A stretch of 25,562 nucleotides of DNA from Candidatus Helarchaeota archaeon (GCA_029838215.1 JALGVI010000078.1:1-25562), one strand, 5' to 3'; counted from the first letter of the stretch, positions 3,279-25,562 are shown. Numbers and translations are program-made. Notes: a model not told the origin generated them from the sequence alone.

Positions 3279-3313
3279 GCTCCTGAAAACACCAAAGAAA
3301 TCTGCACTTATTT

Positions 3314-3325
3314 TATCACGTGATA
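3314..3325. promoter_or_regulatory. Perfect 12-bp palindrome TATCACGTGATA upstream of polB2, candidate operator
   Basis: Read directly. It lies 36-47 nt upstream of the polB2 start and 5 nt downstream (minus sense) of a TATA-like TAATAAAA at 3331-3338. Confidence 0.4.
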
Positions 3326-3472
3326 TTGAGTTTTATTAGAAGGGAGAGACCATGAGAGAAGTGAAAGTTTTTTGTCGATTTCCTAATTCTTCAGATTTAA
3401 ATATAATATTACTTCTCTAGAGTTCAGTAATACCGAACTTTGAGAAAATAAGAATCAAAGGAGTTAAGAAAT

Positions 3473-4000: not shown

Positions 4001-4067
4001 ATCTTCTTTTCTTTTTCGGCTTTTAAACTCATCAGCGCTCACCTTTTTATCGTCATGAGAATAATGA

Positions 4068-5048: not shown

Positions 5049-5063
5049 GGAAGAACATCGCCG

Positions 5064-6471: not shown

Positions 6472-6478
6472 GACATGT

Positions 6479-6967: not shown

Positions 6968-6976
6968 CTAAATACC

Positions 6977-7261
6977 TCAAGGAAAGTTCGTAAAGAACCA
7001 GAAGATTCCATAAAAGACCGAAAATACTGGGACAAAATCACCGAATAACCAAGCATAAACGAACCAGTTCATGCCGAGAAGGATTAGAAATGATGGTAAT
7101 GATCTGAAAGCGCGCCAGTTTCCATGTCCGATAGCAGAATAAGCCGCAACGAAGAACCCCACTATGAGTCCGATATTCACCAGAAACACGCAAAACATGG
7201 ACCAGAAATAGAATCTAAATAAGAAATCGTTCAAGAGTCCAAACAGATCTATCATGACCAT
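6977..7261 (-). CDS. Small hydrophobic protein (94 aa), helix-basic loop-helix, pilin-like architecture
   Basis: Two hydrophobic segments separated by HGNWRAFRS; GGACGTGA SD-like sequence upstream; first gene of a five-gene operon. Confidence 0.75.
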   Translation of the reverse strand: MVMIDLFGLLNDFLFRFYFWSMFCVFLVNIGLIVGFFVAAYSAIGHGNWRAFRSLPSFLILLGMNWFVYAWLFGDFVPVFSVFYGIFWFFTNFP

Positions 7262-7290
7262 TAAGAATCACGTCCCATTTTAAACAGCAT

Positions 7291-7313
7291 GGGTAAAATG
7301 TGATGTTAATAAA
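7291..7313 (-). promoter_or_regulatory. Promoter with shared motif: TTTATTAA-catcaca-TTTTACCC
   Basis: TATA-like 8-mer, 7-nt spacer, TTTTACCC; 29 nt before the 94-aa gene; same geometry at three other promoters. Confidence 0.7.
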
Positions 7314-7371
7314 GGTTGTGGTCGATAATGTAGGCTTTCCGATGGTTAAATTGGGGATGAGAATGACAAGA

Positions 7372-9600: not shown

Positions 9601-9677
9601 TCAATTGCCCCAATCTATGGTGATTAAAGGATTGCAAGGATAAGTTTTTAAAGTCAAATATTGACCTTAAAAAAATT

Positions 9678-10028
9678 ATGTTGAATCAAATTTTTGGAAA
9701 ATCGCTATTGGGAACGGCTTCGTATCGTTTTAATCATCGGCACGTTTACGTCCGAGAGCGATACGCGTGGAAAGAACAACAATACTTCGTTCCTGAAGAA
9801 AAGCACGCAAAAATTCTCACCTATATCGAACGAGAACTTAAGTATCAACTCACGCAAGATATATTCCTAAAAGACGATAGTTTCGTCCAAGTGATTTACC
9901 AAGACAATTATCTAAAATTGAGGTTTGGCACAAAAGCTCCTGAAAATCTGGCATCAATCGAAGCTGCCTTAGAACGATTCTTGAACATTCCCACCCTTCA
10001 TGCCATTAACAAAGCGAAAATTGATTAA
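9678..10028 (+). CDS. Hypothetical protein (116 aa)
   Basis: ATG-started ORF divergent from the helicase, followed by T-runs; no recognised motif. Confidence 0.65.
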   Translation: MLNQIFGKSLLGTASYRFNHRHVYVRERYAWKEQQYFVPEEKHAKILTYIERELKYQLTQDIFLKDDSFVQVIYQDNYLKLRFGTKAPENLASIEAALERFLNIPTLHAINKAKID

Positions 10029-10042
10029 CCACTGGATAAATC

Positions 10043-10062
10043 TTTTTTTTTCATTTTTTTTT
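10043..10062 (+). terminator. Oligo-T archaeal terminator candidate
   Basis: Two T9 runs (10043-10051, 10054-10062) starting 14 nt after the stop of the 116-aa gene. Confidence 0.5.
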
Positions 10063-10548
10063 AGTTTAGAATAATTTTTTGAAAATGCCTCCTTCCATTC
10101 ATGAGCATTTCTATTGGGAATTCATTTTAACGATCAAGGTAATTCACGAAAAAAATGAACGCTTGTAGAGCTTGTTGAGGAAGGACTGTAAAGAATGACA
10201 AGCGAGCAAACATGATCAAGACGGATATTTTAAAACATTTTAGAAAATAAGCAAGGTCATTCGTTCAAATCTCATCACCTGCTCCATCCTGATGCTCATT
10301 TTAGAGGAAACTTCGAAAAAAGATACGCTCGAGCAAAACTAAAACCAAGATCCCAATTTCTCTGAATGGAATGATCGTGATTAAAAAAAAATTTTGACTT
10401 CAGTTCTGGTTGAGGAAGACCTCTCATAACATTTTTACGAGATTTGTGATGTATTGGTGAAAAAGACAAGCGTTTTTGGAAAATGGGCGGGGTTATTTTT
10501 TGGTGTTTTTTTTTCGATCAATATGGGAAAATATCATTTCGATTAGAT

Positions 10549-10557
10549 AAAAAAAAA
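10549..10557 (-). terminator. Oligo-T archaeal terminator candidate
   Basis: T9 on the minus strand immediately after the TAA of the 471-aa gene. Confidence 0.45.
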
Positions 10558-11973
10558 TTATAGATAATGATCTGGGACGGGAAATGGTAAGTAGTTTAGA
10601 ATTGCAATGGAATTTGCCAGTTCTGGTTTGATGAATTCTCGTTGGAGACAACGCGGGAGTTTCTTGCTCGGCATCACTGTTAATTCTCCTTGTACCAGAC
10701 TTTTTAATACTCGCGCTTCGTGATGTGCTCCCATAAAAAATCCTTCGACATCCCATAATCCTATGGTGGCTTTTTCAGAGAATTCATTTAATTCCCGAAC
10801 GGCCTGTTCAAACTCATCCATCTGATCATGAAATACCCTGTGTAGAAGCGGGTTGCGCTCTCTTCCGAGCAGCTGTTCACCAAAAGCGGACTTTAGAACA
10901 TCGTAATTTTTATCTGTCATTTCTTCGGAGAGTTGATTTGCCATGATTAGAACTCGCTTTTCGAGCTTTCGACTTCTTCGGTTCAAATCATCCTCATCCA
11001 AAATTCGTGCGTGAAATATCAAGGCAAAATCTTCAAAAGCCAACGGATTCTCGTATATTTTAGTGAGAAATTCTGAGAGACAATTTTTTAACTGCGAGAT
11101 CTTGTACAACTTGAATGCACGTGTCCTTGCCCCTTGAGATACCCAGATACTTTCATCATGTTGGAGAGATGGTGGTTTAAACCAATCATATTCCATGAAT
11201 GGAAGTCGCAAGATCTTTTCTTGAATGAGCTCGGAACGAACAATTTCGTGTTTGATTCGGAACTGACGCATGTAATCGGATAGTGCATTTAATGCGATCG
11301 TGAGATTTTGAATGACTTCCGCCTGACGGACATCTCTCTCGACAATACCAACATAAAGATGAACTTTGTCCTGTTGCTTCTGGACTTCAAATGTTAATTC
11401 CGTGAATACTGGGTCCGATACCACGAGTTGGATTACCTTTTCAAATGTAACCCTTGGATCATGGATGCAAATCCACTTAATTGCGTGCCAAAGATCGTCA
11501 TGCTTGAATAGAAGCGTTTTTGTTAGCTCTTCAAATGCCGCAGGGCGATAGGAGAATTCTGTCCGAAGCTCTGAAGAAAGTACGTGGAAGGATAATAAAA
11601 AGGATTTTAGCCCAATTTTATGGTAAATCGCCAGGAAAAAAGTGCCAAAATATGCCAATAAAACGACTGGGACAAGCAGCGGATGCACGTGAAAACTGAA
11701 TCCACTCAGCACGATACCAAGATGAATAATACAAGCCAGCAAGAAAATTTTTATTAAATCCTTGAGCCACGGTCGTTCGTTTCCGAGATTTGTCATCCAT
11801 CCAAAGAAAATGCAAATCCCCGAGACAATTCCCCAGAAAGCAAGAAGAAACAATACGGCGATAGGATCACCGAGCACGCATGCAAAGAAGGAAAATAATG
11901 TAACTGATGAGATGGTATAACATATAAGCATCAAAAGTGTTACGATCACGATTATAGTCATCAAAATTGTCAT
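10558..11973 (-). CDS. Membrane protein (471 aa): ~4 N-terminal TM helices plus a large soluble region with two apparent alpha/beta repeats
   Basis: Hydrophobic aa 1-130; amphipathic strand/helix alternation and a charged helical insertion afterwards; starts 2 bp after the radB-like stop. Confidence 0.85.
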   Translation of the reverse strand: MTILMTIIVIVTLLMLICYTISSVTLFSFFACVLGDPIAVLFLLAFWGIVSGICIFFGWMTNLGNERPWLKDLIKIFLLACIIHLGIVLSGFSFHVHPLLVPVVLLAYFGTFFLAIYHKIGLKSFLLSFHVLSSELRTEFSYRPAAFEELTKTLLFKHDDLWHAIKWICIHDPRVTFEKVIQLVVSDPVFTELTFEVQKQQDKVHLYVGIVERDVRQAEVIQNLTIALNALSDYMRQFRIKHEIVRSELIQEKILRLPFMEYDWFKPPSLQHDESIWVSQGARTRAFKLYKISQLKNCLSEFLTKIYENPLAFEDFALIFHARILDEDDLNRRSRKLEKRVLIMANQLSEEMTDKNYDVLKSAFGEQLLGRERNPLLHRVFHDQMDEFEQAVRELNEFSEKATIGLWDVEGFFMGAHHEARVLKSLVQGELTVMPSKKLPRCLQREFIKPELANSIAILNYLPFPVPDHYL

Positions 11974-11975
11974 TT

Positions 11976-12653
11976 TTAAATCACCTCAAATCCACGATCT
12001 GTCATTCGAAATCCTAATTCCGAAATTTCTGTTCCCCCTGAAGCACGCAGAGTCATCTTGCGAAATGGGGATCCATTAGGATCGCCGAACTCTTCTATCA
12101 AGATATGTATCTGGCAGGTCAAATCACATTCCGTTTGTGTTATGGGACGAAATCGTCTTGACGTAAAATCTGCCGTGATTTGATTCGTAAGAATTACTGC
12201 AAATCGACGCTTTCCATTGCGAAACATGCGCACCAATCGTTGAAGATAACGATCAAAGAGAATCTTTTGAAATTCGTGCCGCTGTCGCCGATCACAAAGC
12301 CGATAGAAATAAGTGAAGTTGTCCAAGATGATGAGGCGTGTAGTTGCATGCACGCAGTGTTCGATATTTGTAAAAATATATTGAAAATGATTCCAATCTC
12401 TGATGCGAACGAGTGAAAAATAGTCCCAATCTCGGGTGTTTGCCATTCGCTCTAGTTTTCGAAGGGAAAATGAGTTGTTACAATCAATCCACAATACATC
12501 GTGTTTCTCCTTGAGCAATTTTGCCGCAACCTGTAAGCAAAAAATTGTTTTTCCCGTGCCCGGTTCGCCATATACGTGAGTGATTTGACATAACGGGATG
12601 CCTCCATTGAGCACCTCATTGAGCGTGGGCAAGGGTGTTACTAGAGTCATCAC
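11976..12653 (-). CDS. radB: RadB-like / RadA-paralog RecA-fold ATPase without N-terminal domain
   Basis: LNGGIP, Walker A GEPGTGKT, IDCNNSF, Walker B LIILDN, VILTNQ. GTG start overlaps the upstream TGA (GTGA). Orthology to true RadB is uncertain because there is no KHR motif. Confidence 0.8.
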   Translation of the reverse strand: MMTLVTPLPTLNEVLNGGIPLCQITHVYGEPGTGKTIFCLQVAAKLLKEKHDVLWIDCNNSFSLRKLERMANTRDWDYFSLVRIRDWNHFQYIFTNIEHCVHATTRLIILDNFTYFYRLCDRRQRHEFQKILFDRYLQRLVRMFRNGKRRFAVILTNQITADFTSRRFRPITQTECDLTCQIHILIEEFGDPNGSPFRKMTLRASGGTEISELGFRMTDRGFEVI

Positions 12654-12874
12654 TCACTTGTCACCTTACCGAAATGGAATTCCCGCGATCCACTCGTTCG
12701 TTTTTGTTGCTGAATATAAGACGTGGCTTCTGTTGCTGTTTCAAAAACCGCAATGACGATGAACTTGCCTTTAGCTTGACAGTGAGGACACGTGGGTTTC
12801 TTGACTGAAGCGCGTTTCAGGGTTAATGTCGAACATTCTTCACATTTTACGACCTTATAATTCTTCAATGTCAT
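12650..12874 (-). CDS. Small zinc-ribbon protein (DUF1922-like)
   Basis: CEEC...CPHC followed by a short helix (EATSYIQQQK), the layout of small archaeal Zn-ribbon proteins. Confidence 0.8.
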   Translation of the reverse strand: MTLKNYKVVKCEECSTLTLKRASVKKPTCPHCQAKGKFIVIAVFETATEATSYIQQQKRTSGSREFHFGKVTSE

Positions 12875-12883
12875 GAAAATGGC

Positions 12884-12906
12884 TGGTAAAAAAGAGTGTT
12901 TAAAAA
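12884..12906 (-). promoter_or_regulatory. Promoter with shared motif: TTTTTAAA-cactctt-TTTTACCA
   Basis: Same TATA-N7-TTTTACC geometry; ATG follows 9 nt later, consistent with a near-leaderless mRNA. Confidence 0.7.
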
Positions 12907-12966
12907 TTTATTGCTTACAAGAAAAGGAACGAAATTCCAAAATGAAGCCAAAAAGGGTGAGGTTGT

Positions 12967-13602
12967 TTAAAGTTGGCTCTCAATAATACGTATTTTTTTC
13001 AAGAACGTTCGCGTGATTAAAACAATTACGACCAGGACTATCATGATTGCAACAATGATACTTACTAAGATTTCCCATGAATTCGTGAAGAAAACGCTGG
13101 TCATGTTATCATTGTATTGAAAGTTAAGGTTTGAGGATGATAGCTCCGTGATTTGCAGGGATGAAAGCAGAGATCCCTGAAAATCTGTTTCCGTAATTTT
13201 TACTAATATCATAACACAGTCTACATGATGTCCCAAAACAAAAACTGACTTATAACCCGCAAAATTGCAACCCAAATCGGTACTTCCGTGCTTGATAATT
13301 TGATAGTCTTGGATATCTGTGATGTAGAACGTGCAATGCGTTCCATCAACATTCATTCGAGTCAAAAGTTGAACTTGTTGATGTTCGTGACGCTTTTCTG
13401 CTTCGGAAGAAAATAGAAACGTGAGAATATCGGTAGAAATACTTTCGACTTCTAAATACATTTTATCAACCACTCGTGGAACGGGGTCCTGGTAAGTCTG
13501 CGTGATGACTTGATATTCTAAGTAATCACCAATTTCGAATGGACTTTCGCACGTTCGTGCGTGAATAACTGGAAAAAAAATCACGCTCAAACTGGTCATC
13601 AA
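12967..13602 (-). CDS. Exported protein with C-terminal TM anchor; true start probably upstream (13647 or 13656)
   Basis: C-terminal ILVSIIVAIMIVLVVIVLI followed by a basic tail; beta-rich body (FEIGDYLEYQV); in-frame upstream codons form a signal peptide (see findings). Confidence 0.75.
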   Translation of the reverse strand: MMTSLSVIFFPVIHARTCESPFEIGDYLEYQVITQTYQDPVPRVVDKMYLEVESISTDILTFLFSSEAEKRHEHQQVQLLTRMNVDGTHCTFYITDIQDYQIIKHGSTDLGCNFAGYKSVFVLGHHVDCVMILVKITETDFQGSLLSSLQITELSSSNLNFQYNDNMTSVFFTNSWEILVSIIVAIMIVLVVIVLITRTFLKKIRIIESQL

Positions 13603-13652
13603 AAAAAAAGGAAGAATTAAAAGGAGAACAGACGTTCTTCGAGAAATTTAAA

Positions 13653-14834
13653 TCAACTCTTCTGCTTGTTTTTTTTAGTTTTGGCTTTTTTGGTTGTTGA
13701 TGTTTGATTTTTTTCCTTAGAAAGTGTTTCCACTTCAGTTGCTTCGGTTGCTTGTTCGATCACATTTGTTTCTTTAACCTTGCTATCTCTTTTTTTATTG
13801 TTTTTTTTTGCTTGTTTGGCATGCCATTCGGGACTCTTGTCAATATCTGCATTATATTGATCGCATTCGACCGTGTTGATGAATCCTGCACCCACGAGTT
13901 CTAAAAATATTTCTTCATTTGCCAAGTCTACGGCTTTTTCTATCTTGATCTTTTTAACCCTTTTAGAGCGTGGGGCGATCAGGATGCGTACTTGGCTTTC
14001 ATGTCCGACAGTATAACCCATTGAGTGCGTGTATTTTGATGAAAATGCCGTTGCATTTACATTTGCGGTAACTTGATTAGTCAAGACCGCAACTGCGTTG
14101 TAGTTTGTCGCTGCTTTTTTTAGAGCGTGGATGATGCGGTTTGCTTTTTGTTGCCTGATTGGAAACAGCTGTCTCTCCGAACCGTATTCTGCCCGAAAAT
14201 GCGTGGCTATTGAATCAAGCAGGATCAATCGTGCCCCTGTTTGTTCCATTATCTTGTTAAGACCTTCTTCTGCAACATATAAGAGATCATCTGTCGTGGC
14301 GGGATTGGCCCTTGCAACGGATTGCACTACTGTTTCATAATCTAATCCATAATATTCTGCCATTGTTTTAATTCGGCGAATGGAAAAAGCTCCTTCGCAA
14401 TCAAGGAATACCGTAGCAGGGCTTGCTAGCCCACCTTTTTCTTCAGGAAGCATGGACAGGCATATGAGTTGGTGGAGCAGGCTTGATTTTCCCGATCCTT
14501 GAGGGCCATAAAGTTCATAAACTTTTTGAGTTTCAAACCCCCCGCCCAATATGCGATCGAGGGGTGCTTGACCCGTTTTAATGAATTGCCGTCTTTTAAA
14601 TTGTTGTAAAAGTTGGTCGCCTGTTATAAAACCGAACATTCCCCCATTCATTTCATCCAAGCGGTTCTTTGCAGCCCTGATTAATTTTTTGGCGGCATCG
14701 GCACCATATCCTACTCCTTTCAGCGAATCTATAGACGTGGTTGCCAAGACTTGGATGTTCATTATGCCTGCATCCTTCAGTTTCTCGACCGTACTTGGTC
14801 CTACACCTTTCAAGTTATCTAATTCTAATGACAT
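13653..14834 (-). CDS. radA: RadA/Rad51-family recombinase, divergent, with ~74-aa Lys-rich C-terminal tail
   Basis: N-terminal HhH LKGVGPSTVEKLKDAG, polymerisation motif GFITG, Walker A GPQGSGKS, DCEGAF, LLDSIATHFRAEY, RQQK, TNQV; GAGGT upstream. Confidence 0.9.
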   Translation of the reverse strand: MSLELDNLKGVGPSTVEKLKDAGIMNIQVLATTSIDSLKGVGYGADAAKKLIRAAKNRLDEMNGGMFGFITGDQLLQQFKRRQFIKTGQAPLDRILGGGFETQKVYELYGPQGSGKSSLLHQLICLSMLPEEKGGLASPATVFLDCEGAFSIRRIKTMAEYYGLDYETVVQSVARANPATTDDLLYVAEEGLNKIMEQTGARLILLDSIATHFRAEYGSERQLFPIRQQKANRIIHALKKAATNYNAVAVLTNQVTANVNATAFSSKYTHSMGYTVGHESQVRILIAPRSKRVKKIKIEKAVDLANEEIFLELVGAGFINTVECDQYNADIDKSPEWHAKQAKKNNKKRDSKVKETNVIEQATEATEVETLSKEKNQTSTTKKAKTKKNKQKS

Positions 14835-14889: not shown

Positions 14890-14912
14890 GGGTAAAATTT
14901 ACCCTTTTTAAA
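14890..14912 (-). promoter_or_regulatory. radA promoter with shared motif: TTTAAAAA-gggtaaa-TTTTACCC; includes inverted repeat GGGTAAA-A-TTTACCC (14890-14904)
   Basis: Read directly; the motif ends 55 nt before the radA ATG. Confidence 0.7.
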
Positions 14913-14973: not shown

Positions 14974-14996
14974 CTTATAAAGGCTAGTTTTTACCC
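14974..14996 (+). promoter_or_regulatory. Promoter with shared motif: CTTATAAA-ggctagt-TTTTACCC
   Basis: Same geometry; 25 nt before the ATG of the 803-aa gene, with GGTGA in between. Confidence 0.7.
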
Positions 14997-15021: not shown

Positions 15022-17433
15022 ATGATGTCGAAACGAGCAAAAAAACTCATTACATCCCTCTTGCTGGTGACTTTTATCGTCGTTTTTGGGATTTTAATTT
15101 ATCAAATTACTATTCCAGACATAACTGGGCACGTTAATAGGGATCAAAATGAGATACACGCTGCTGCTCAATCGTTTGATAGCTATTTTGAATTGTTTTA
15201 CCCAATGGAAATCAATGGGCAAACTAATATCGTGAATTGTGATGTTGAATTTCCCTATGCGTTTAAAATCGAAGAGAGCAACCTTGATGGAATATTTGCA
15301 AGCCTGACAATGAATCTAACGTTTGATGTTTCTTCTCTACCCATTCCCGAGACAAATTTAACAATCTTAAGGTTGGATTTTGAAACGAGATCTCGTACCA
15401 CATACAGTGATGACGTCAATTTTTCAAGATTACTCGTGAAAATATACAATGAATCTGATGGTGGATATTCGTTATTATCCAATCAGGTATGGGATCACTC
15501 CGTCATTCAATATTTTCTAGGTGATGGGACTGTTAATATTACCATTGACATCCCGAACTTTGTCATGAATGGTGAGGTAAAATTTCAATTAGTCCTCGAA
15601 CAATGGCTTCAAATTCCCCATTCAAATTATGATTTGCGCTTCTACCTTTATTATTGCTCATTGATCTTGGGACAAAACATTGAATTTGTCCCTTATCATC
15701 CTATTTCTGCTGAGATCGTGGAATATAATTCAAGATATGAACTCACCGGTTCACTTGAAGATTTAAAAATGGAAGATAATCAGACTTTTAATCTTGAAAT
15801 TTACCCCACGTTGCAGGACACATTGGAAATCGTTGAGATGGACTTGACGTTCAACGTGAATGGGTGTCAGTATGATGAGATTTTTGGTGTAATAATAGAA
15901 CACGATGATTTCTTTGAAATCAGTCTGTCTAATTCATACTATTACTTACCCCGTTTATACTTGCAGGATAAAACCACTCAAACTTTTAATTATTTTACAA
16001 ATTCTCGTGTTAAATCATCTGAAAACACGAGTCATTGCATTTTCGTTAGTGGAAATCAGTGGGTTGATGAAGATGGATTATTAACCATCCGTTATAGATT
16101 AGAATTAAACGACCATGAAGGGTTTAATCCCGCATATTATCGTTTTGATCAATCTGTAATCTATATAATTCGCCGTAACTTACCACTCGTTAATGTAAAT
16201 GTACCATCTGTAGGGTATGTATTTGAAAATCTCACGATTAGTATCGAATCAATTTCGTTTAATGGTATTTACTTCCATCCTATTTCTTCAATAATTTTTG
16301 ATTTTGGAACGTGGCAAGAAACGTATGACGTGCAAGATGGATTAAATGAAATTAACATGACTCGCAATGTTGCATGCTCCGAGAATTTTGATTTAATCAT
16401 ATATTATGATTCAAATGAATCATTTTTCGTTCAGGGTCATTATAATATTGAATTTCGGAAGATTGACGTGGAAATAACCACATCAGAACCCCTAGTTGTC
16501 CCGTTTAAAATAACCGGCTCCGTGATTTTAACTCGACTCGATTCTGGCATCCCTATTCCAAATAAAACTTTTAATTTTCTTGTTTATCATGGATATAATC
16601 CAACACCTGATTACATGACCACTGAAACCACGGATGCGCAAGGAGGCTTTAATTATACCTATTATATTGATCCTTTACGCTATCTGGATGAGTATTATAG
16701 GATTACGATCGAGGTCGAGCAGGATGATGTCTATAATTACAACATAGAAACTATTGGTGTTATTTGTAGCGAGGCTCCTGCAAACATCACGTTATTCTCA
16801 CTAACTCCTATTAAAAACGATGGATATGCAGGCGATACTATAGAAATCGAATACATGATCGATTGCTTAGTTCCGTTATATCAAGTGCAACTACTTCTTA
16901 ATGATACAGTACTGCATGTACTTTCATCAGCATTGGGAATAATTCGTTACAATTTTACGGGCGTGAAAGGTAATAATACCTATAGCATTCGAGTCATAAA
17001 TGACCGCATGCAAGTTTCACAGTCTAACTCGATTGAACTCAACTTACTGGCACGTTCCATCGATATAAGTTTAAACTCATGGCAACATCATGACGTGTTG
17101 GAGTTTTCATTAGTAATGACTGATGTTCTAACGGGATCATACTGTAATAATGCCCAAGTATTTGTCGAAATTCGTGATAACGGGCTTCTAGTTTTTTCGC
17201 GTGGATATTCTGCTGAAAATCCAATACATGACAGTTATAAGTTTGATTTCAGCACGGATCATTATTTTCAAATCCTAGTTTACGTCGAATCGGATGTTTA
17301 CACCATCGAAATGACGCACGCACAAGTATCCTACACCGCTTATCCATTTGTAGTCATCTTGACGGGTTTAATTACAATTCTTGGATCAAGCGGCGGAGGT
17401 GTAATGTTTTATTATAAAAAGAGGCGAACATGA
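15022..17433 (+). CDS. Large cell-surface protein (803 aa), N-terminal signal/anchor helix, beta-rich body, C-terminal TM
   Basis: KRAKK plus hydrophobic helix at the N-terminus; Ig/beta-sandwich-like strand patterns and many N-x-S/T sequons; YPFVVILTGLITILG...YYKKRRT at the C-terminus. Confidence 0.85.
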   Translation: MMSKRAKKLITSLLLVTFIVVFGILIYQITIPDITGHVNRDQNEIHAAAQSFDSYFELFYPMEINGQTNIVNCDVEFPYAFKIEESNLDGIFASLTMNLTFDVSSLPIPETNLTILRLDFETRSRTTYSDDVNFSRLLVKIYNESDGGYSLLSNQVWDHSVIQYFLGDGTVNITIDIPNFVMNGEVKFQLVLEQWLQIPHSNYDLRFYLYYCSLILGQNIEFVPYHPISAEIVEYNSRYELTGSLEDLKMEDNQTFNLEIYPTLQDTLEIVEMDLTFNVNGCQYDEIFGVIIEHDDFFEISLSNSYYYLPRLYLQDKTTQTFNYFTNSRVKSSENTSHCIFVSGNQWVDEDGLLTIRYRLELNDHEGFNPAYYRFDQSVIYIIRRNLPLVNVNVPSVGYVFENLTISIESISFNGIYFHPISSIIFDFGTWQETYDVQDGLNEINMTRNVACSENFDLIIYYDSNESFFVQGHYNIEFRKIDVEITTSEPLVVPFKITGSVILTRLDSGIPIPNKTFNFLVYHGYNPTPDYMTTETTDAQGGFNYTYYIDPLRYLDEYYRITIEVEQDDVYNYNIETIGVICSEAPANITLFSLTPIKNDGYAGDTIEIEYMIDCLVPLYQVQLLLNDTVLHVLSSALGIIRYNFTGVKGNNTYSIRVINDRMQVSQSNSIELNLLARSIDISLNSWQHHDVLEFSLVMTDVLTGSYCNNAQVFVEIRDNGLLVFSRGYSAENPIHDSYKFDFSTDHYFQILVYVESDVYTIEMTHAQVSYTAYPFVVILTGLITILGSSGGGVMFYYKKRRT

Positions 17434-18077
17434 TGAGTATTGAGTTAGATGGAATTGATGAAGGTTGGAGAGCCGAGAAAAAATCGGGTCGAAATTATAA
17501 AGGGCTATTGGTATTAACGAGTGGCATTTTGGTTGTCGTAATTTCAATAGCGATGGGCTTTATCTTTGCATTAAATCCTGCTTTTCAGATAACGCTTGTT
17601 GAGCTTATTTTTGCGGGCATTCAAACACTGGTTTTGGTATGTTTCGGTTTTTTAACCCTTGCACTCTTAATTGTAATGGTATTAATGAATGCAGATCTGG
17701 CACAAGGACGAGGGGCACTGAGAGCAACTCAATTTACACTCATAGCTGCGCTCATTGGTTTTATAATATATGATGTTTTCTTAAATGAAATCTTTGGTTT
17801 CCACGTGATGAGTATTTCAACAGGAAATTTGGTTTTTCCCTGGATCATATCCGTCATCCAAATCATCATATGGATTTCACTTATCTTATTGTTTCTCCTA
17901 CTTGCAATTCAAGTCACCTTAAAGGCTATAAGTATCGATAAATCCACGGGAATGACCTATAATCTCATTATCTGCGTGATGAGCATCGGGATCGTCTTCA
18001 TTCTAAACATCATTTATATTAACTACTACGGCGTGCCGATAATAATTCCTTTTAATCCTTCTGGGGTGATTCCGTGA
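17430..18077 (+). CDS. Polytopic membrane protein (215 aa, ~5 TM)
   Basis: Five long hydrophobic segments; ATGA overlap with the upstream gene. Confidence 0.85.
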   Translation: MMSIELDGIDEGWRAEKKSGRNYKGLLVLTSGILVVVISIAMGFIFALNPAFQITLVELIFAGIQTLVLVCFGFLTLALLIVMVLMNADLAQGRGALRATQFTLIAALIGFIIYDVFLNEIFGFHVMSISTGNLVFPWIISVIQIIIWISLILLFLLLAIQVTLKAISIDKSTGMTYNLIICVMSIGIVFILNIIYINYYGVPIIIPFNPSGVIP

Positions 18078-18328
18078 GCTGGATTTACATGCTTGATTTA
18101 TTCATGACTTTAACGCTATATTATGCGCGGGCAATTTTCCTCATGCTTGTATTTCTTCTATCTGTTTCGTATGCTTATGAAGGATTCAAGATCATTGCGG
18201 ATGTTAACCCCAAACTCGTGGGTAAGAGCGTGTTGTATAAACACCTGATTTCTCTTTTAATTCTCGTCTTCATCGATTTCATGTTTTGGCTAATCTTCAA
18301 AATTCCGCTTCACAGTTGGACAAGGTGA
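18074..18328 (+). CDS. Small two-helix membrane protein (84 aa), VirB2/TrbC-pilin-like architecture
   Basis: Hydrophobic helix, GFKIIADVNPKLVGKSVL loop, second hydrophobic helix; GTGA overlap with the upstream gene. Confidence 0.75.
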   Translation: MSWIYMLDLFMTLTLYYARAIFLMLVFLLSVSYAYEGFKIIADVNPKLVGKSVLYKHLISLLILVFIDFMFWLIFKIPLHSWTR

Positions 18329-18332
18329 TATA

Positions 18333-21300
18333 ATGACTGTATTGTTACAACAATTACTGGATGATATTCAAGAACAAGGTAACATTCATCATGCCTTTGA
18401 AAATCAAGCAACACGTATTTCACTTGTATATTCCCTGAAAAAACTTGAGCACTATTCTGTCTTTTGCATTTTCATCTTGAAAGATGCGGGGCACGTGGAA
18501 TCCCTTCATGATCGGAATGTACGGGAGATCATTAACGAAGTTGAACACGTAAAAAAACTTATCTTGGCTGGTGAAATTAGCGCTTTACGCCTTCCCGATA
18601 TTCCTAGATTTCAAGTCCGAACTCTTTCATTTTTCGATTTAAGAATTCATGATCGTCTTCGACTTCAACACGTTTCTTTAGAACATGATGGCAAACCCGT
18701 GTTAACTTTCATCTTTCCCGCCCTAATTACAAATGTCCCCAGCATTCATCGAACACTAGCGTGTGCCGAGTGCCGTTTAGATCTAGTTCCTGCTCCCTTG
18801 GTTTCGGAATTTATTCGAAACATGAATGCAGAAATCGTTGAAAAATCAGCCCACATTTATGATGCCTCTAAAGATCGACACGTACAATGGAATAATCGGG
18901 TTAATTTAGTCGGAATGATTCTGACTCTGGTATTTGCGGGATTCACGACACCACTAATGATCCTCGCCCCTTTTTTCAAGATGTCTCCTTTATTCTTCAT
19001 TGACTTGTATTGGATGTTGATTTCATTTGACGCTATTGGAATGATCGGCCATGCCATTTTGCGCCATAAAGCATATCTACGTGAAATCCTTGCAGAATGG
19101 AACCATCCGCAACTGTTCGACATTGCTAGGGGGTCTAACCCTCCTGAAAGACATGTCGAACCAAATATCGAAAAAACAGATCTCTCCGAAAACATTGTTG
19201 ACTACGGGCAAGTTCGGGATGAGATCGATGATTCGAAACGTAATATCCATCACGGATCATTAACCCGAACATCAAAAAGAAGTATTATCGTCCCAAAGAA
19301 AGCTAACACGATAAAAAAGCAGGAATCAACTCAAATTCATTGGCATGCTTTTACGGGGGAGTATTCTCTCATCCAAACAATCCGAAAGGAATACGAATCT
19401 GCGAAATCTGCTCAAGAAGAGAAAAAATTTCGCATTCATTTTCTCAATATAATACAGGGAACCGTGGCCTATAATTGGCTTCAACTCGGAAAGAAAATTC
19501 CAAAGTCCCGTAAGCTGGATCCCGTAGAAAATACATTAGACTCATTAGCGCGCTTGCAAGCACGTGGCATGAGCCATCCGTATAAAAGCCTGTTACAACA
19601 GTTCCTTGAAGTGCTGTCGCATAATCGAAGTCTATTTGCTGAAGAGATGCAAGTGATGCTTTCACGCCTTGAACAAATGCTTATTCGTTTAGGAGTTCTG
19701 GCGGGCAGGATCGAGAAACAAACACCGATTTCTCATGACGATGAGTCGTCTTTTCCATTAAATGAAGGAGTTATTAATGAAGACCTCACAAAAATTCCAG
19801 ATCTGCGTGTTCAGCGATATCTAAATAATAAACCAAAAACACGCTGTCGTAAAGAACAGATCGAGGATATGCTCATGCAGGCGAACCGCTACCTTCACGT
19901 AGGGGAAGACGATGCAATCAAGGATGTTCTAAAAGGATTTCCCGGTCTCCTATTCAAAGAAGTCTTGATAAATTCTGCTAACATTGAAGAAAATCGATGC
20001 CATACTTTTGAGCAAATTTTTAAGAAGAAGGGTGTAATGCTTACCGAACAACAACTCCTAAAATCAATATCAAGCATCAATAGTGCTTTATACGAATATC
20101 TGAAAGCGTTTTACAAAGATTTCCAAGAAATACAAGCCAAAAAAAAGGCACCTGGCGAAACTCTCTATAAAATCTGCCAACAAGCATGGAAAAAAATGAG
20201 CATGAATCTTTATGCTTCACCTGTTAAAGATGAATTCCCGATACGCAGCAATGAAATTGGAATGGAAGAAAAAACGCAAGAAGAAAAGAGACTCACGCCA
20301 ATCATTCCTGTCACCGATAAAGATATCATAAAAAATGAATTAAAAGGACAATTCATCGAAATAAAGACAATCGCCAAGTTAAATCTAGTTCTAAATGAGA
20401 CCAGTAAAGATTATCCCATATGTATTGTTTCATATAGATCAACATCCATGCCGCAATTCGTTGAATTACTGAAGATAAGAAAGGAATTTCGCGATTTGAT
20501 GTTTTATCTGTTAAACGTTGAGGAATTGAATGGAGACGATGATATATTTCAAGTCGTAGACTCTCCAAAAACCCTGCTCAAATATCGCACGCTCAAATAC
20601 ACTCATGAATACGTGGATTTTCAGGATTGTCATGATTTACTTAAGAAATTCATGCGTGAATTGAATGACTACAAGCATTCAAAACTTGTCAAGTCTGGCG
20701 TTCCTATTAATGGCAAATCCGGTCCGAAGGAAACAGACACAACCACGAATTCAATTGAAGAAATCTTTGATCCGAATTCTCCCGTCATTCATATCAAGGA
20801 TGAACGACCTTGGTTGCACCACATCAGACACAATACCAACCCTGTTTTCGTTTTACTTCATTCTGGCACGAACAACGCATATATCGAAGCATTGAACGCG
20901 ATAAAGACACTTGACATCCCAAATAATATCACGATCATTGAAGCCGACCAGCGTCTTGGATTCGTGCAAGAGACTTTTCCTGAAGAGGTCGACCTGGCAA
21001 TCTTAAAGCTGGATGGTGAAACCCGCGAAACCCTGAGTATAGATCAACTACGTGGAGCTCTCGAGATTAATGTTGATGCAGTTGGTACTAAAAAAACTCC
21101 GAAAAAAGAAGAAAATGAAGATGTCAAGAAGTTGGACGTCCTAAAATTCAAGAGGATTGTCGTAGACGGAACAAACGTCTTCAATTTCATAAAAAACGAC
21201 TTACAACAATTTGGCGAAATCGTGGATTTTAAGATTTTTCTGAAGTTACGGGAGTTGTTATACGATCTCGGATTCGAAGATGTTATCATTTACTTTGATT

Positions 21301-22397
21301 CAAACACGTATCATAATTTCTCAAATAAAGAGAATAAACAACTTAATAAACTCATCAAGACAGGTCGTTTCCGTCAATCAGCATCAGGTGAAAAAGCCGA
21401 CCCGCACATCATTACGATGGCAACAGGACCCATTCCCGGCTATATTCTTTCTCGAGATAAGTTTTGGAATTATGATGATGATTTCCAGACGAGATCCTCT
21501 GAATTTATCAAGAGACTCATTGCTTTCGAAATAACGGATGGCTTGATTCATTTTGAGCCAAAAGATAAGAAATTGGCAAATACCCCAATATTTAAAAAAC
21601 GGTATAAACTATTTGATGCATTTGAAATGGGTATAGAGGCAATTTCTAAAAGGAATAAGAATGTCAATGAGAAGAAAGCCAAGAAAAAGAAAAATCACTC
21701 AAAACCAAACAAATCTGTCATGAATACTACCGTGCAGACAGAAAATGAACCTGTAGAAAAACCCATTCCGAATGAAATCGAGATGCATGCATGTATAAAG
21801 GCTCTATCATTTCTGAGACAGAATGCCTTTCATGATGCGAAGGCTTTCAAAAAACGTTTTGAGAATGAATATGATTTCTTATTAGGGAATGAGTACATTA
21901 TCCGGGAACGCGCGGGTTCTTCGGATAGACCTCACGTAAACATCACTACAAAAGGAATTGCATTTGTCAAGCGATTTTTTATTGTTGATATTATTTTAGG
22001 TGAGTTTGATCCCATTAGTGGACCCGAAATCATCTATCCTACGGCATACAACACGGGAGATTTCGCCAACCAACCCTTAGCTGGTTTGGAAACACGAGCA
22101 AGTCTAAAAAAGGTTCTTCAGAATTGTTTTGACAAGCATTCTTATCTTCAGAGCTTTCAGGACGAACTCCAAGAATTCAACTTGATTTATCGCACGTGGA
22201 AAATAAAAAATAATGCACTCCCCCGGGGTGAAGCCGTTTTTGGCGTGCTAATTTTCTGTCGTAAGTTATTTAATGAAGAATTTTCTCACGCGTTCTCAAA
22301 GGAGTTAAAACAAGTTCTCAATGGATTTCAACCCACGCTTGATTATCGTAGTGAACTGGTAGAATTCATTCAAAAAATTGGGAGGGATTTGCTTTAA
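18333..22397 (+). CDS. 1354-aa multidomain membrane protein: 2 TM, helical domains, two thioredoxin-like folds, NYN/Regnase-type PIN ribonuclease, winged helix, C-terminal uDENN/longin domain
   Basis: TM at aa ~190-243; RIVVDGTN (D945), KADPHI (D1023), ILSRDKF (D1042); NITTKGIAFVK; EFDPISGPEIIY and LPRGEAVFGVLIF. Confidence 0.85.
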   Translation: MTVLLQQLLDDIQEQGNIHHAFENQATRISLVYSLKKLEHYSVFCIFILKDAGHVESLHDRNVREIINEVEHVKKLILAGEISALRLPDIPRFQVRTLSFFDLRIHDRLRLQHVSLEHDGKPVLTFIFPALITNVPSIHRTLACAECRLDLVPAPLVSEFIRNMNAEIVEKSAHIYDASKDRHVQWNNRVNLVGMILTLVFAGFTTPLMILAPFFKMSPLFFIDLYWMLISFDAIGMIGHAILRHKAYLREILAEWNHPQLFDIARGSNPPERHVEPNIEKTDLSENIVDYGQVRDEIDDSKRNIHHGSLTRTSKRSIIVPKKANTIKKQESTQIHWHAFTGEYSLIQTIRKEYESAKSAQEEKKFRIHFLNIIQGTVAYNWLQLGKKIPKSRKLDPVENTLDSLARLQARGMSHPYKSLLQQFLEVLSHNRSLFAEEMQVMLSRLEQMLIRLGVLAGRIEKQTPISHDDESSFPLNEGVINEDLTKIPDLRVQRYLNNKPKTRCRKEQIEDMLMQANRYLHVGEDDAIKDVLKGFPGLLFKEVLINSANIEENRCHTFEQIFKKKGVMLTEQQLLKSISSINSALYEYLKAFYKDFQEIQAKKKAPGETLYKICQQAWKKMSMNLYASPVKDEFPIRSNEIGMEEKTQEEKRLTPIIPVTDKDIIKNELKGQFIEIKTIAKLNLVLNETSKDYPICIVSYRSTSMPQFVELLKIRKEFRDLMFYLLNVEELNGDDDIFQVVDSPKTLLKYRTLKYTHEYVDFQDCHDLLKKFMRELNDYKHSKLVKSGVPINGKSGPKETDTTTNSIEEIFDPNSPVIHIKDERPWLHHIRHNTNPVFVLLHSGTNNAYIEALNAIKTLDIPNNITIIEADQRLGFVQETFPEEVDLAILKLDGETRETLSIDQLRGALEINVDAVGTKKTPKKEENEDVKKLDVLKFKRIVVDGTNVFNFIKNDLQQFGEIVDFKIFLKLRELLYDLGFEDVIIYFDSNTYHNFSNKENKQLNKLIKTGRFRQSASGEKADPHIITMATGPIPGYILSRDKFWNYDDDFQTRSSEFIKRLIAFEITDGLIHFEPKDKKLANTPIFKKRYKLFDAFEMGIEAISKRNKNVNEKKAKKKKNHSKPNKSVMNTTVQTENEPVEKPIPNEIEMHACIKALSFLRQNAFHDAKAFKKRFENEYDFLLGNEYIIRERAGSSDRPHVNITTKGIAFVKRFFIVDIILGEFDPISGPEIIYPTAYNTGDFANQPLAGLETRASLKKVLQNCFDKHSYLQSFQDELQEFNLIYRTWKIKNNALPRGEAVFGVLIFCRKLFNEEFSHAFSKELKQVLNGFQPTLDYRSELVEFIQKIGRDLL

Positions 22398-23425
22398 TGA
22401 CAAGATATAAACAAAAAATCGTCTTTTTTGGACCTTCAAATGCAGGTAAAACATCCTTGCAGAAATTCTTCTGGGAAAAAAAGACATACGATGAGATTAA
22501 AGACTTACCACCAACAAAAAGCTATGATTATTCAGACAGGCCACTACGTTTTGGTCCAATAGAAATATCTTCCCTAGATCTTGGCGGACAATCAAGCCTC
22601 ATCAAGCAATGGCTAGATGATGATGCTGAGTTTCGCTGTTTTGAACACGCGAATGTCGTGATATGCGTTTTGGATTTCTCCGATGAATTGCTCGGTAAAA
22701 GTAACTTTCTCCAAAAAATGGAAGAAATAAAACAACTGTTGCGATTATTAATCGCGTCTTTGCGTGTTCAGGTTTTGCAATATCAAGACGTGGACTTGTT
22801 GATTTTCCTTCACAAGTGGGATCGCGTGGTTGAAATTAAGAAGAATGAGCAAGATCTTCGTGAATTAATCATTTCAAATCTTAAGCAGATTGAAAAAGAA
22901 GAAAATTTCGAGAATATCTTGACAGAAGGGAAAAAGAATTCAAAATATGAGAAAATATTGCCATTCTCAATTAATTTCAGGGGATTTCACTTTACATCCA
23001 TTAAAGACTTGCGATTCTCACCCCGTCTGGCTTTAAAGAAAGTCCTTCCAAGGACATCTCAATTTGTCATTGCTTGTAATCAATTTCGAAGAAATTTTTT
23101 GAAACTGTCGCAATTTTTCTCCTTGTTTCTCATCGATCAGAACCTACTCGACATTGAATCCGTTCAATTTCCCGTCTTGCATGATTTTGAGAGCATTAAA
23201 CAATTCACATTTCGCACGCTTTTATCGTGTTTTGATTTGGAAACTGTCACGTACGTAGTCGTCCGTCAAGAAAATGGATTAGGCCCACTTGATATTTTTC
23301 TTCTCAGGGTTAATCCTGACATCTATTGTTTGCTCGTGGCGAAAACGACGAGCCAAGATAAAACACTACAACTACTTCTCGAATTCAGGCGGTCAATTCA
23401 AGCCATTGATTTGATTTATGAGTGA
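22397..23425 (+). CDS. Gtr1/RagA-family small GTPase with C-terminal roadblock/longin-like domain
   Basis: G1 GPSNAGKT, G2 PT, G3 DLGGQ, G4 HKWD, G5 TSIKD (RagA has DCGGQ, HKMD, TSIWD); ~130-aa C-terminal domain; TAATG overlap with the upstream gene. Confidence 0.88.
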   Translation: MTRYKQKIVFFGPSNAGKTSLQKFFWEKKTYDEIKDLPPTKSYDYSDRPLRFGPIEISSLDLGGQSSLIKQWLDDDAEFRCFEHANVVICVLDFSDELLGKSNFLQKMEEIKQLLRLLIASLRVQVLQYQDVDLLIFLHKWDRVVEIKKNEQDLRELIISNLKQIEKEENFENILTEGKKNSKYEKILPFSINFRGFHFTSIKDLRFSPRLALKKVLPRTSQFVIACNQFRRNFLKLSQFFSLFLIDQNLLDIESVQFPVLHDFESIKQFTFRTLLSCFDLETVTYVVVRQENGLGPLDIFLLRVNPDIYCLLVAKTTSQDKTLQLLLEFRRSIQAIDLIYE

Positions 23426-23431
23426 GTCATC

Positions 23432-25417
23432 TTGTCGATCCCCGTGGAAACGCGTCCATTTTTCCCATTCGCCAAAGTTCGACCCGGGCAGGCAACGCTC
23501 ATCACGAAACTATACCAAGCAGTAAAGACGAACAAACACTCCTGTTTTGATGCAGCAAATGGGATCGGAAAGACGGTTTCCGTGCTTGCAAGCACCTTAC
23601 CCGTAATTCTCGAGCAAGGAAAACTTCTGATTTATTGTGCACGCACGCATTCCCAGATGAATCGAGTATTGGATGAAATTCAATTAATCAATGAAAAAGC
23701 ACCATTAAAGACTTCAGCAATTTCTTTAAAGGGAAAAAAGGAAATGTGCATTAACCGCACGGTTTTGGATGCCGTGACAAGCTCTGCGGATCTGATTGAT
23801 TATTGTAACAGTCTAAAGGGGCGGAAACCATCCGAACAATGTCCATTTTTCCGAAATTTCCGCGAACAAAAAGGAAAAATCACTAAACTCTTTAATAAAG
23901 CAGTTTGTTCTGATCAAGTATTGATTTCTGAAGGATATCAGATGCAAATTTGCCCTTACGAGCTTTCTAGAAGCCTTCTCTCCCGTGTCGATGTCGTAAT
24001 CACGACGTATAATTACCTGATACACCCTGAAATTCAACGGCTTTTTTTTAATGATATCAATCGGACAATTTCCGAGTGCGTCATCGTGTTTGATGAATCA
24101 CATAACCTTCCGGATATTGCCATGAATGCCAATTCTGATTATATCTCGTTAAATTCCGTGCTTCGAGCCAAAAAAGAGTTGAAAACAATGGAAGGCTCGC
24201 ACGAGGTCATTGAAAAGGTGTTGGATTTCTTCGCCGATTATCTCGAACAAGAGCTCAGGCGTTATGAATCGTCAGGAGCACGATGGTCTGAAGAACACGG
24301 AATAAATGAAATCATTCTTCGGCAGAAACTTGTTGCCCTTGGTTTAAACGAAGGCATCATTCAAGATGCAATTGCTTTAGGGCGCCAATATCGACTTGAA
24401 AAAATAAAAATGTTCGAAGATGCCGGCACGAAGAAACGCGTGAATTCTTCTCTCAATAAATTTGGCCGATTTCTTAGTCTACTCGATCAATCTTTGGATG
24501 ATCATTGCTATTTTCATGAGTTGGAATTCGTTAAAGGAAAAAAACAGACGATCGTGCGTCTCCATGCCCGTTGCCTTGATGCTCGTCCAATTTTGGTGCC
24601 ATTATTCAACGGTGTAGTCTCCTGCCTTTCAGGTACGCTTCGTCCCGTAAAGGCATTCTGTCAGCTCGTGGGATATCCCTCATCTTATACTCAGGGAGTC
24701 ATTCCAAGCCCATTTCGATTCCAGAATATTTGTTGCCTTGCCATGCGGGATATTTCAACACGATATGCCGTGCGAACCCCTCAACTTTATTCCATCTTGC
24801 GCGGTCACCTGCGGGAAGTAATCGAAAATACACCCGGAAATGTTGGCATCTTTTGTGCTTCTTACGAAATATTGAGCAAGATATTGAACTACTCGTTCCG
24901 TCGTTATCTGAATACGGATTTGAACATTCCAGTATTTCGTGAATATCAAGATCTTGAGCGAAGTTTCTCAAGCACACAAAATGAAGAAATGATACAAAAG
25001 TTCAAGAAGATAGGGCGGGCAGGCAAGAAGGCCGTGCTATTTGGCGTGTGTGGGGGACGAAATTCTGAAGGTGTTGATTTTCCGGGCAATGAAATGAGGA
25101 CCGTTGTTATCGTGGGGTTTCCCCTTCTCCGACCTTCAATACGACTAGAAGCCCTTGAGACATTTTACAAGCAAGAATTTGGAGAAGAATTAGCACGGTT
25201 ATATGCATATCAAATCCCTGCCATTCGAAAATCCAACCAAGCTGCTGGGCGTCCCATTCGTAAAATCGATGATCATGGGGCAATTATTTTTCTCGATGAG
25301 CGTTTCACCTATAAAAAAGTGCGAAAATATCTGGCTTCGTGGCTTACTGATACAATGCGTGTCATTCCAAATGAAAAAGGTGTCATTGCAGCCCGGCTAA
25401 AAGAATTTGATTTTTAG
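23432..25417 (+). CDS. xpd: XPD/Rad3/DinG-family 5'-3' helicase with Fe-S cluster
   Basis: Q motif RPGQ, ANGIGKT, four Cys (EMCIN, DYCNS, EQCPFF, QICPYE), DESHN, SGTL, SEGVDF, QAAGRPIR. Confidence 0.92.
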   Translation: MSIPVETRPFFPFAKVRPGQATLITKLYQAVKTNKHSCFDAANGIGKTVSVLASTLPVILEQGKLLIYCARTHSQMNRVLDEIQLINEKAPLKTSAISLKGKKEMCINRTVLDAVTSSADLIDYCNSLKGRKPSEQCPFFRNFREQKGKITKLFNKAVCSDQVLISEGYQMQICPYELSRSLLSRVDVVITTYNYLIHPEIQRLFFNDINRTISECVIVFDESHNLPDIAMNANSDYISLNSVLRAKKELKTMEGSHEVIEKVLDFFADYLEQELRRYESSGARWSEEHGINEIILRQKLVALGLNEGIIQDAIALGRQYRLEKIKMFEDAGTKKRVNSSLNKFGRFLSLLDQSLDDHCYFHELEFVKGKKQTIVRLHARCLDARPILVPLFNGVVSCLSGTLRPVKAFCQLVGYPSSYTQGVIPSPFRFQNICCLAMRDISTRYAVRTPQLYSILRGHLREVIENTPGNVGIFCASYEILSKILNYSFRRYLNTDLNIPVFREYQDLERSFSSTQNEEMIQKFKKIGRAGKKAVLFGVCGGRNSEGVDFPGNEMRTVVIVGFPLLRPSIRLEALETFYKQEFGEELARLYAYQIPAIRKSNQAAGRPIRKIDDHGAIIFLDERFTYKKVRKYLASWLTDTMRVIPNEKGVIAARLKEFDF

Positions 25418-25448: not shown

Positions 25449-25562
25449 AAAAAATTGAACTTTTATCCAATTTTGATCCGATTCGACTCAAGTCATCTTT
25501 CAAAACCGATAAAAAAACACGCTACAGACTTTTTTTTTAAGCTTAGATACAAAGATAACCCT

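Follow-up and report, generated by a model that had tools for sequence, protein, structure and literature searches.

A conserved, probably polycistronic six-gene unit encoding a surface protein, a membrane-anchored NYN nuclease that ends in a longin domain, a Rag-type GTPase and an XPD paralogue in an Asgard archaeon

Layout and conservation of the six-gene unit

The stretch of DNA analysed here (the window) is the entire 25,562-bp contig C34 of G000, the metagenome-assembled genome (MAG) of an uncultured Helarchaeota-group Asgard archaeon (GCA_029838215.1, JALGVI010000078.1:1-25562); the MAG amounts to 3.6 Mb and is 94% complete, with an estimated contamination of 6.2%. Between positions 15022 and 25417, six open reading frames (ORFs) follow one another on the + strand and encode proteins of 803, 215, 84, 1354, 342 and 661 aa: g1 (15022-17433), a bitopic surface protein with Ig-like repeats; g2 (17430-18077), with five transmembrane (TM) segments; g3 (18074-18328), with two TM segments; g4 (18333-22397), a membrane-anchored multidomain protein; g5 (22397-23425), a Rag/Gtr-type GTPase; and g6 (23432-25417), an XPD/Rad3 iron–sulfur (Fe-S) helicase of a clade referred to below as XPD2. 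An initial annotation, made from the sequence alone, had proposed these genes as an operon; the ORFs, their sizes and their topologies are all borne out by ORF calls and hydropathy, and its six protein assignments are supported by Pfam, NCBIfam, hydropathy and fold searches.

The genes are tightly packed. From g1 to g6, the junctions comprise an ATGA overlap, a GTGA overlap, a 4-bp gap, a TAATG overlap, through which the stop of g4 and the start of g5 have one base in common, and a 6-bp gap (-4, -4, 4, -1 and 6 bp, respectively), precisely as had been described at the outset. Both unusual start codons, GTG for g3 and TTG for g6, fall where the orthologues have their N-termini, and GGAGG-like ribosome-binding sites precede internal genes. 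A candidate promoter for the unit, consisting of TATAAA, a spacer and TTTTACC, can be read directly at 14976-14995 (+), 26 nt 5' of the g1 ATG, in keeping with the single motif-bearing promoter that had been placed at the front. Internal promoters would have split the unit: the 80 nt preceding each of g4, g5 and g6 contain no TATA-like hexamer, and all three loci described below lack a TATA-like box 5' of g5 and g6. The block itself contains only T6 runs and a single T8 run; a T9 run, identified by sequence scan as a candidate archaeal terminator (25530-25538, +), comes after the XPD stop. Scans for sigma-70 promoters and bacterial terminators gave results at shuffle level, and such models do not apply to archaea; Rfam revealed no RNA family on the contig.

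A gene-neighbourhood search found the identical ordered string in two further genomes, namely, G001 (locus L032), which belongs to the same family and another genus, and the Logan contig L043; the genes therefore do co-occur outside the window. In G001, the products are of 827, 87, 79 and 1334 aa, followed by a 354-aa Rag protein and a 657-aa XPD, with gaps of 20, 9, 18, 6 and 32 bp; the small TM genes differ from those of G000, and the block lies within an 844-kb contig, with PolB2 on a separate contig. In L043, the junctions are of -17, 2, -4, 25, -4, -4 and 1 bp; g2 is duplicated, there is an extra, 164-aa, NYN-only gene, and the sequence identities to G000 are 46% for g1 (25% for its orthologue in G001), 39% for g3, 28% for g4, 63% for g5 and 62% for g6. 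The flanks vary among the three genomes and the block itself is intact, the gap between g5 and XPD2 being 6, 1 and 32 bp in G000, L043 and G001, respectively. Moreover, contig C34 resembles the rest of its genome in GC content (0.40 versus 0.386) and in tetranucleotide usage (r = 0.98). From the layout of these loci, we conclude that the six genes form a single conserved chromosomal unit, which is probably polycistronic, with the proviso that the full layout is seen in three genomes and that every genome is a MAG.

Domain architecture of the encoded proteins

The whole 1354-aa g4 sequence gave no match when scanned against Pfam, and a full-length search among 5.8 billion proteins returned only g4 itself. 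Its positional orthologue in L043 is 28% identical over the full length, and that in G001 matches collinearly in three patches. Hydropathy delineates a TM hairpin at residues 192-238 (18906-19046, +), which is also present in the L043 orthologue and lies in a region that aligns with G001. An NYN nuclease domain of the Zc3h12a/Regnase type (PF11977) occupies residues ~936-1097 (21138-21623, +): scanned on their own, residues 900-1130 reach 24.4 bits (cut-off 23), and the score of the L043 orthologue is 38.6 bits. The acidic-site residues D945, N948, D1023 and D1042 are invariant in G000, L043 and G001, and their equivalents are kept in the alignments of three further loci, G006, L049 and L050; we take the conserved aspartates to correspond to the catalytic aspartates of Regnase-1. 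A profile search of Protein Data Bank (PDB) sequences with residues 900-1354 gave a single, weak match, to KHNYN (E 0.92). The additional NYN gene of L043 (L043:9510-10004) stands alone between the genes for g4 and the Rag protein, with a 4-bp overlap on either side, and its 164-aa product is 33% identical to residues 936-1097 of g4.

Beyond the nuclease, an AlphaFold model of residues 1150-1354 (built on a three-sequence alignment; predicted local distance difference test, pLDDT, 73.7) and fold searches with it delineate two further domains. The first, a winged helix (residues ~1150-1215; 21780-21977, +), corresponds to residues 1-68 of the model, which resemble the MarR-type winged helix-turn-helix with Z-scores of 7-8.5 and root mean square deviations of 2.3-2.9 (VIA-align). 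The second is a C-terminal longin domain (residues ~1211-1354; 21963-22394, +): for this part (model residues 62-205), the top match of an exhaustive VIA-align search is the Lokiarchaeota Roadblock-Longin protein (8yqg_B; Z 9.3), followed by the Lst4 longin domain (8.4) and by chains of the SEA complex (8.3), GATOR1 (8.2) and folliculin (7.9). Foldseek independently ranked a chain from a GATOR1 entry first for the g4 tail, with chains from such entries at E-values of 9e-3 to 0.1. The longin scores are borderline, yet they come from two independent aligners. Within the longin domain, R1255 and R1298 are invariant in the three orthologues, the latter being located in a β-hairpin loop of the model; Arg78 of NPRL2 and Arg164 of FLCN are the reference residues for the catalytic arginine finger of longin regulators. 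In the ESM Atlas, residues 1150-1354 had only sub-threshold leads (scores of 0.81-0.83, to Promethearchaeota hypotheticals), and residues 1-930 had none. Overall, g4 is a TM-hairpin protein with a Regnase-type NYN domain, a winged helix and a longin domain.

The neighbouring g5 is a Rag/Gtr-type GTPase with a C-terminal roadblock domain. It matches PF04670 (Gtr1_RagA) with 45.6 bits (cut-off 22; E 7.8e-12), and its GPSNAGKT, DLGGQ, HKWD and TSIKD motifs are invariant in the three orthologues; we take the last two to be the Rag-type G4 (HKxD) and G5 (TSIxD) signatures, as in RagA. In a profile search of PDB sequences, Gtr1 (9.6e-11) and RagA (1.9e-10) were the best matches, with RagC, G-alpha and Arf-like proteins ranking lower. 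The g5 model is of low confidence (pLDDT 60.5); in Foldseek, its top 42 matches are all chains from Rag/Gtr entries, LokiRagO (8yl2) and LokiRagM (9m28) among them, and the alignments extend over the full length, with E-values down to 4e-13. The G domain is followed in the model by the roadblock domain (residues ~219-341; α-β-β-α-β-β-β-α), and MglB, MglC and a chain of a Ragulator complex match the C-terminal half alone (Foldseek). Members of the Rag family are obligate dimers with a second Rag, formed via their roadblock domains. The unit has a single Rag gene, and the nearest g5 paralogues in the genome have E-values of 2.8e-7 or weaker. Searches beyond the family yielded no orthologue of g5, the best matches there covering only the G domain (E ~1e-11 to 1e-13), and a Rag alignment run against metagenome contigs disclosed no related locus.

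For g6, TIGR00604 gives 312 bits (cut-off 247), and both the DEAD_2 (PF06733; 6.6e-35) and Helicase_C_2 (PF13307; 1.5e-39) domains are present. Five XPD2 sequences have invariant Walker A residues (G44, G46, K47 and T48), DESH box residues (D221, E222 and H224) and cysteines at the Fe-S ligand positions (C106, C125, C137 and C174). These sequences belong to a clade with 100/100 support that is limited to the order and stands apart from the housekeeping XPD (G000:C88). On the basis of its motifs and phylogeny, g6 is predicted to be an intact 5'-3' Fe-S helicase paralogous to XPD. When the housekeeping XPD was used as a query against G001 (a 94%-complete MAG), the best match was the XPD2 copy and a housekeeping-type XPD was not found; therefore, XPD2 is not necessarily a spare everywhere. 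An identity as the DinG/Csf4 helicase of type IV CRISPR systems was considered and rejected: TIGR03117 gives only 27 bits against a cut-off of 400, and the contig has no cas genes. The PADLOC type IV DinG model (PDLC01439) does match g6, but the match is generic, because the housekeeping XPD matches it equally. No relatives of XPD2 were found in viral contigs.

The remaining products, g1-g3, are all membrane proteins. Hydropathy gives g1 an N-terminal hydrophobic segment (residues 9-27) and a C-terminal TM segment (residues 776-794) followed by a KKRRT tail. Its N-x-S/T sequons occur at 2.0 per 100 aa, as compared with 0-0.9 in five non-membrane comparison proteins, and the central part of its profile (positions ~400-700) matches giant surface proteins with Big_7/PKD repeats. 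In an exhaustive profile search of 1.84 billion proteins, there were only about ten full-length representatives of g1. The topologies of g2 and g3 were likewise assigned by hydropathy. The two g2 paralogues in L043 are 33% and 27% identical to g2, and a weak relative lies directly after g1 in L049 (E 9e-5). The g3 orthologue in L043 has 193 aa and is a fusion (L043:4788-5369) of a g3-like half with a half that is 32% identical (E 2e-7) to u94, a 2-TM protein encoded in the window at 6977-7261 (-), where its gene opens the membrane operon of which FEN1-2 is the last member. The fusion constitutes a Rosetta-stone-type link between two membrane operons of C34. Neither g2 nor g3 has a family match in Pfam, NCBIfam, PADLOC or PHROGs, and g1-g4 as wholes match nothing in these libraries.

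Separable modules and the second recombination gene set

The − strand genes of C34 (window 1026-14834) encode a second, divergent PolB, FEN1, Hel308-like helicase, RadB-like ATPase and RadA. For each of the second copies on the contig (PolB, FEN1, Hel308, RadA, RadB and XPD), there is a paralogue elsewhere in the genome with 26-34% identity, and orthologues of the second copies in other genomes of the order are 41-58% identical; they are present in all searched genomes of the order. In G000, G001, G002, G004, G006 and L048, the genes for FEN1-2, Hel308-2, XPD2, RadA2 and RadB2 are neighbours of the module or of one another; the second copies form a loose cluster that takes in the g1 module.

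RadA2 (13653-14834, -; Pfam Rad51, 9e-39) is the divergently transcribed neighbour of the unit, has its own promoter motif at 14891-14912 (-), and has paralogues on contigs C131 and C122; it adjoins the block or XPD2 in G001, G002, G004, G006 and L043. Duplicated RadA clades in some Asgards have already been published (PMC12722695). The motif of RadA2, TATA-N6-9-TTTTACC, recurs at the promoter of the g1 unit (14976-14995, +), ahead of the RadB2 operon (12885-12904, -) and 5' of RadA2 in G001 (L032:1543-1562). There are 16 matches in the 3.6-Mb genome, three of them on C34, and, as the pattern was defined from these sites, the enrichment is biased upward. The shared element suggests co-regulation of these genes and may mark a regulon.

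Other genomes of the order show that the unit is composite. In G006, L049 and L050, g1 is followed by one small TM protein and then by an 830-910-aa protein with a C-terminal NYN domain (HMM match E 3e-15 to 6e-20), and this core lacks the longin tail, the Rag gene and XPD alike. In G006 and L050, a gene for an SSB-like OB-fold protein follows the core (L041:11585-12274 and L050:15678-16373, respectively). In L048 and L051, g1 is without a detectable NYN partner, and there are FEN1-like, Hel308-like, XPD or DHH genes within ~10 kb. The operon and the assignments made in the initial annotation hold, but the six genes do not make up a single, indivisible pathway, as the core stands without longin, Rag and XPD; the outside-to-inside flow that the annotation had envisaged is a possibility only.

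XPD2 has other neighbours outside the family. RadA2, a ~260-aa membrane-anchored protein and XPD2 are encoded in this order in G002 (L033:4902-8752) and G004 (L034:1266-5142), with a 4-bp overlap in G002; in G006 (L035:4467-9177), proteins of 251 and 231 aa intervene between RadA2 and XPD2. The intervening proteins, of ~250 aa, have a signal sequence and a C-terminal TM anchor, an architecture shared by u211 in the window (12967-13602, -), with just 13-20% identity. In G001, XPD2 is preceded on its own strand by RadA2 and the gene for a 253-aa protein, from which it is separated by ~12 kb that include g1-g5. This order fits insertion of the g1-g5 module into an older RadA2...XPD2 string, with the opposite order of events also possible. 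Since XPD2 follows RadA2 and a ~255-aa membrane-anchored protein outside the family, its place in the unit may be a lineage-specific juxtaposition. As judged from these gene orders, the unit is made up of separable modules: an order-wide core, a family-specific control layer and XPD2.

A possible mechanism and comparison with known systems

The unit can be divided into three layers. The order-wide core comprises the g1 surface glycoprotein, one to three small polytopic proteins and the cytoplasmic NYN nuclease of g4, anchored by its hairpin; the family-specific control layer consists of the winged helix and longin domain at the end of g4, translationally coupled to the Rag/roadblock protein g5; and the last layer is XPD2, the predicted 5'-3' Fe-S helicase. 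As to a mechanism, g1-g4 would presumably assemble as a membrane complex, and the longin domain of g4 would bind g5 and either set or read its nucleotide state, in the manner of the longin/roadblock platforms for Rag and MglA. Platforms of this kind are established GTPase regulators (PMC3747258, PMC10933270). The state of the GTPase would then gate the tethered nuclease or recruit XPD2, which would unwind the substrate, and the latter would be handled at the membrane, for example, in the course of DNA exchange or uptake. Most probably, DNA or an RNA-DNA hybrid would serve as the substrate, because the block lies amid second recombination copies and shares a promoter element with them, and an SSB-like gene follows the core in sister lineages. 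Our leading reading, at about even odds, is that the unit provides a nuclease tethered to the membrane, which is under the control of a longin-Rag switch, is produced together with XPD2 and probably acts on DNA at the membrane; our confidence is high for the anatomy and low for the mechanism.

Several observations weigh against it. Only three genomes, all from a single family, combine the core with the Rag gene, the longin tail and XPD2, which are lacking from the four remaining new contexts of the g1 family. The models of the g4 tail and of g5 were built on alignments of three sequences (pLDDT 73.7 and 60.5, respectively), and at longin Z-scores of 8-9, according to a warning of the tool, similarity may reflect a common arrangement. 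Furthermore, the position of XPD2 could reflect history rather than function, and, to our knowledge, the characterized NYN domains are all RNases, which is a poor fit with a DNA substrate.

As the main rival, XPD2 might be a positional passenger: the g1-g5 module would have been inserted, or moved by rearrangement, between XPD2 and the genes for RadA2 and the ~255-aa membrane protein in the ancestor of the family. XPD2 would then be co-transcribed by accident and would still work with RadA2 in recombination or repair, with g1-g5 serving an unrelated function, such as GTPase-controlled, membrane-proximal RNA turnover. We regard this as possible, albeit doubtful. The established RNase nature of characterized PF11977 domains speaks for it, and it would account for the succession of RadA2, ~250-aa protein(s) and XPD2 in G002, G004 and G006, for the RadA2 and 253-aa genes upstream on the same strand in G001, and for the g1-NYN core that lacks XPD in G006, L049 and L050. 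However, the g5-XPD2 gap has remained at just 6, 1 and 32 bp despite protein identities of 42-62% and rearranged flanks, and RadA2 is adjacent to the block in all three genomes. Moreover, the g1 core is found near FEN1-2, SSB, Hel308-2 or XPD genes in other lineages, and this shared DNA-related context argues against an unrelated function.

Anti-virus defence, in which a membrane sensor and a GTPase would license the tethered nuclease, and the helicase would destroy invading nucleic acid, is considerably less probable. The composition (membrane sensor, nuclease, helicase and NTPase switch) would suit such a role, as would the uneven divergence from L043, which has been much faster for g1 and g4 (46% and 28% identity) than for g5 and g6 (63% and 62%), and the variable module content (the extra NYN gene and duplicated g2 of L043, and the other small TM genes of G001). 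Against this, g1-g5 have no PADLOC match at E <= 0.01 and no PHROGs match, and that of g6 is generic; the contig carries no other defence genes, its neighbours being recombination genes; and the core is apparently kept vertically across three families rather than being patchy. The logic would be similar to that of Zorya, in which a membrane complex is combined with cytoplasmic helicase/nuclease effectors; in contrast to Zorya, there is no homology (PADLOC being negative for g1-g5), no MotAB-like stator, and the context is one of recombination genes, not a defence island. Finally, a virus, plasmid or other mobile element with its own replication/recombination genes, or a misbinned contig, might be suspected from the divergent second PolB, FEN1, Hel308, RadA, RadB and XPD and the 6.2% contamination of the MAG, but is very improbable, given that GC and tetranucleotide usage fit the genome, the G001 block is inside an 844-kb contig, second copies are in all tested genomes of the order, neither an integrase nor a tRNA is present on the contig, PHROGs has no match for g1-g5, and viral contigs hold no XPD2 relative.

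The initial annotation had recognized no described system of this composition, and this is still the case: Pfam, NCBIfam, PADLOC and PHROGs are empty for g1-g4 as wholes, and the parts belong to known families (Rag/Gtr, longin, NYN and XPD), whereas the assembly matches no described system. In its Rag architecture and signatures, g5 is like the GTPases that operate with GATOR1 (NPRL2-NPRL3), FLCN-FNIP/Lst7-Lst4 and Ragulator/EGO, and the MglA-MglB pair offers a similar parallel. The likeness to GATOR1 and FLCN extends to g4, the tail of which has the longin fold of the Rag GTPase-activating protein subunits and is translationally coupled to g5, as would be expected for a switch plus its regulator. 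Unlike the eukaryotic Rag systems, however, the unit has no second Rag, DEPDC5, Ragulator or TOR components; its longin domain is fused to a membrane-anchored nuclease, and its neighbours are DNA enzymes, not nutrient-sensing genes. The likeness of g5 to LokiRagO (8yl2) and LokiRagM (9m28), and of the g4 longin domain to Roadblock-Longin (8yqg), is at the level of the fold (14-20% identity), and we know of no genomic link between any of these proteins and a nuclease or helicase. With Regnase-1/Zc3h12a and KHNYN, g4 shares PF11977 and the acidic active-site residues; it differs from them in being membrane-tethered, in its length (~1350 aa), in having no CCCH zinc finger and in lying amid DNA-repair paralogues. 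For the Asgard archaeon MK-D1, Tran et al. 2024 (PMC10933270) report that, as a rule, small GTPase genes do not share operons with those for longin or roadblock proteins, which makes the coupled longin-Rag pair unusual.

With respect to DNA exchange, the Ced (Sulfolobales) and Ted (Thermoproteales) systems import DNA in conjunction with Ups pili (PMC9905601, PMC11823120). The likeness of the unit to these is one of concept only: membrane proteins are tied to homologous recombination of incoming DNA, small 2-TM proteins occur next to polytopic ones, and regulation is shared with repair functions. No sequence match between g1-g4 and components of Ced/Ted or type IV secretion was found, although the libraries may not include Ced-specific models and g2 and g3 may be remote homologues. 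None of the six genes has a family match to a VirB4/HerA-type ATPase, the only NTPase families found being those of the GTPase and XPD; conversely, Ced/Ted include neither a nuclease nor a Rag GTPase nor XPD.

In its boldest form, namely, that a Rag-longin switch acts on a membrane nuclease/helicase machine, providing Asgard-specific membrane DNA handling for a second recombination toolkit, the proposal is unlikely. In eukaryotes, the Rag-longin pair reports nutrients to TOR at the lysosome; if the proposal were true, an early role of Rag-longin modules would have been the control of membrane-associated nucleic-acid processing, and Asgards would possess a DNA-exchange system unrelated to Ced/Ted or bacterial competence. 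Asgards encode many Rag/Arf/Rab-like GTPases, together with longin and roadblock proteins, and which of them regulates which, and to what end, is hard to assign because the genes are usually unlinked (PMC10933270). The operon supplies a pair defined by the genome, in the form of a longin domain translationally coupled to a Rag-type GTPase, along with candidate effectors, namely, the membrane-anchored NYN nuclease and the XPD helicase. Moreover, it ties eukaryote-like switch proteins to a lineage-specific second recombination set, which bears on the organization of DNA exchange and recombination in relatives of the eukaryotic ancestor.

Some further genes were observed in the vicinity of the loci. 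In L043, an RPA-like gene lies ~1.2 kb past XPD2 on the opposite strand, and in G001, a gene for a PCI-domain protein (L032:3781-4605; PF01399, E 8.5e-9) is located between RadA2 and the g1 block. In L050, a large Arf/Ras/Roc, LRR and TIR protein is encoded ~8 kb upstream of the g1 homologue (L050:1-2035).

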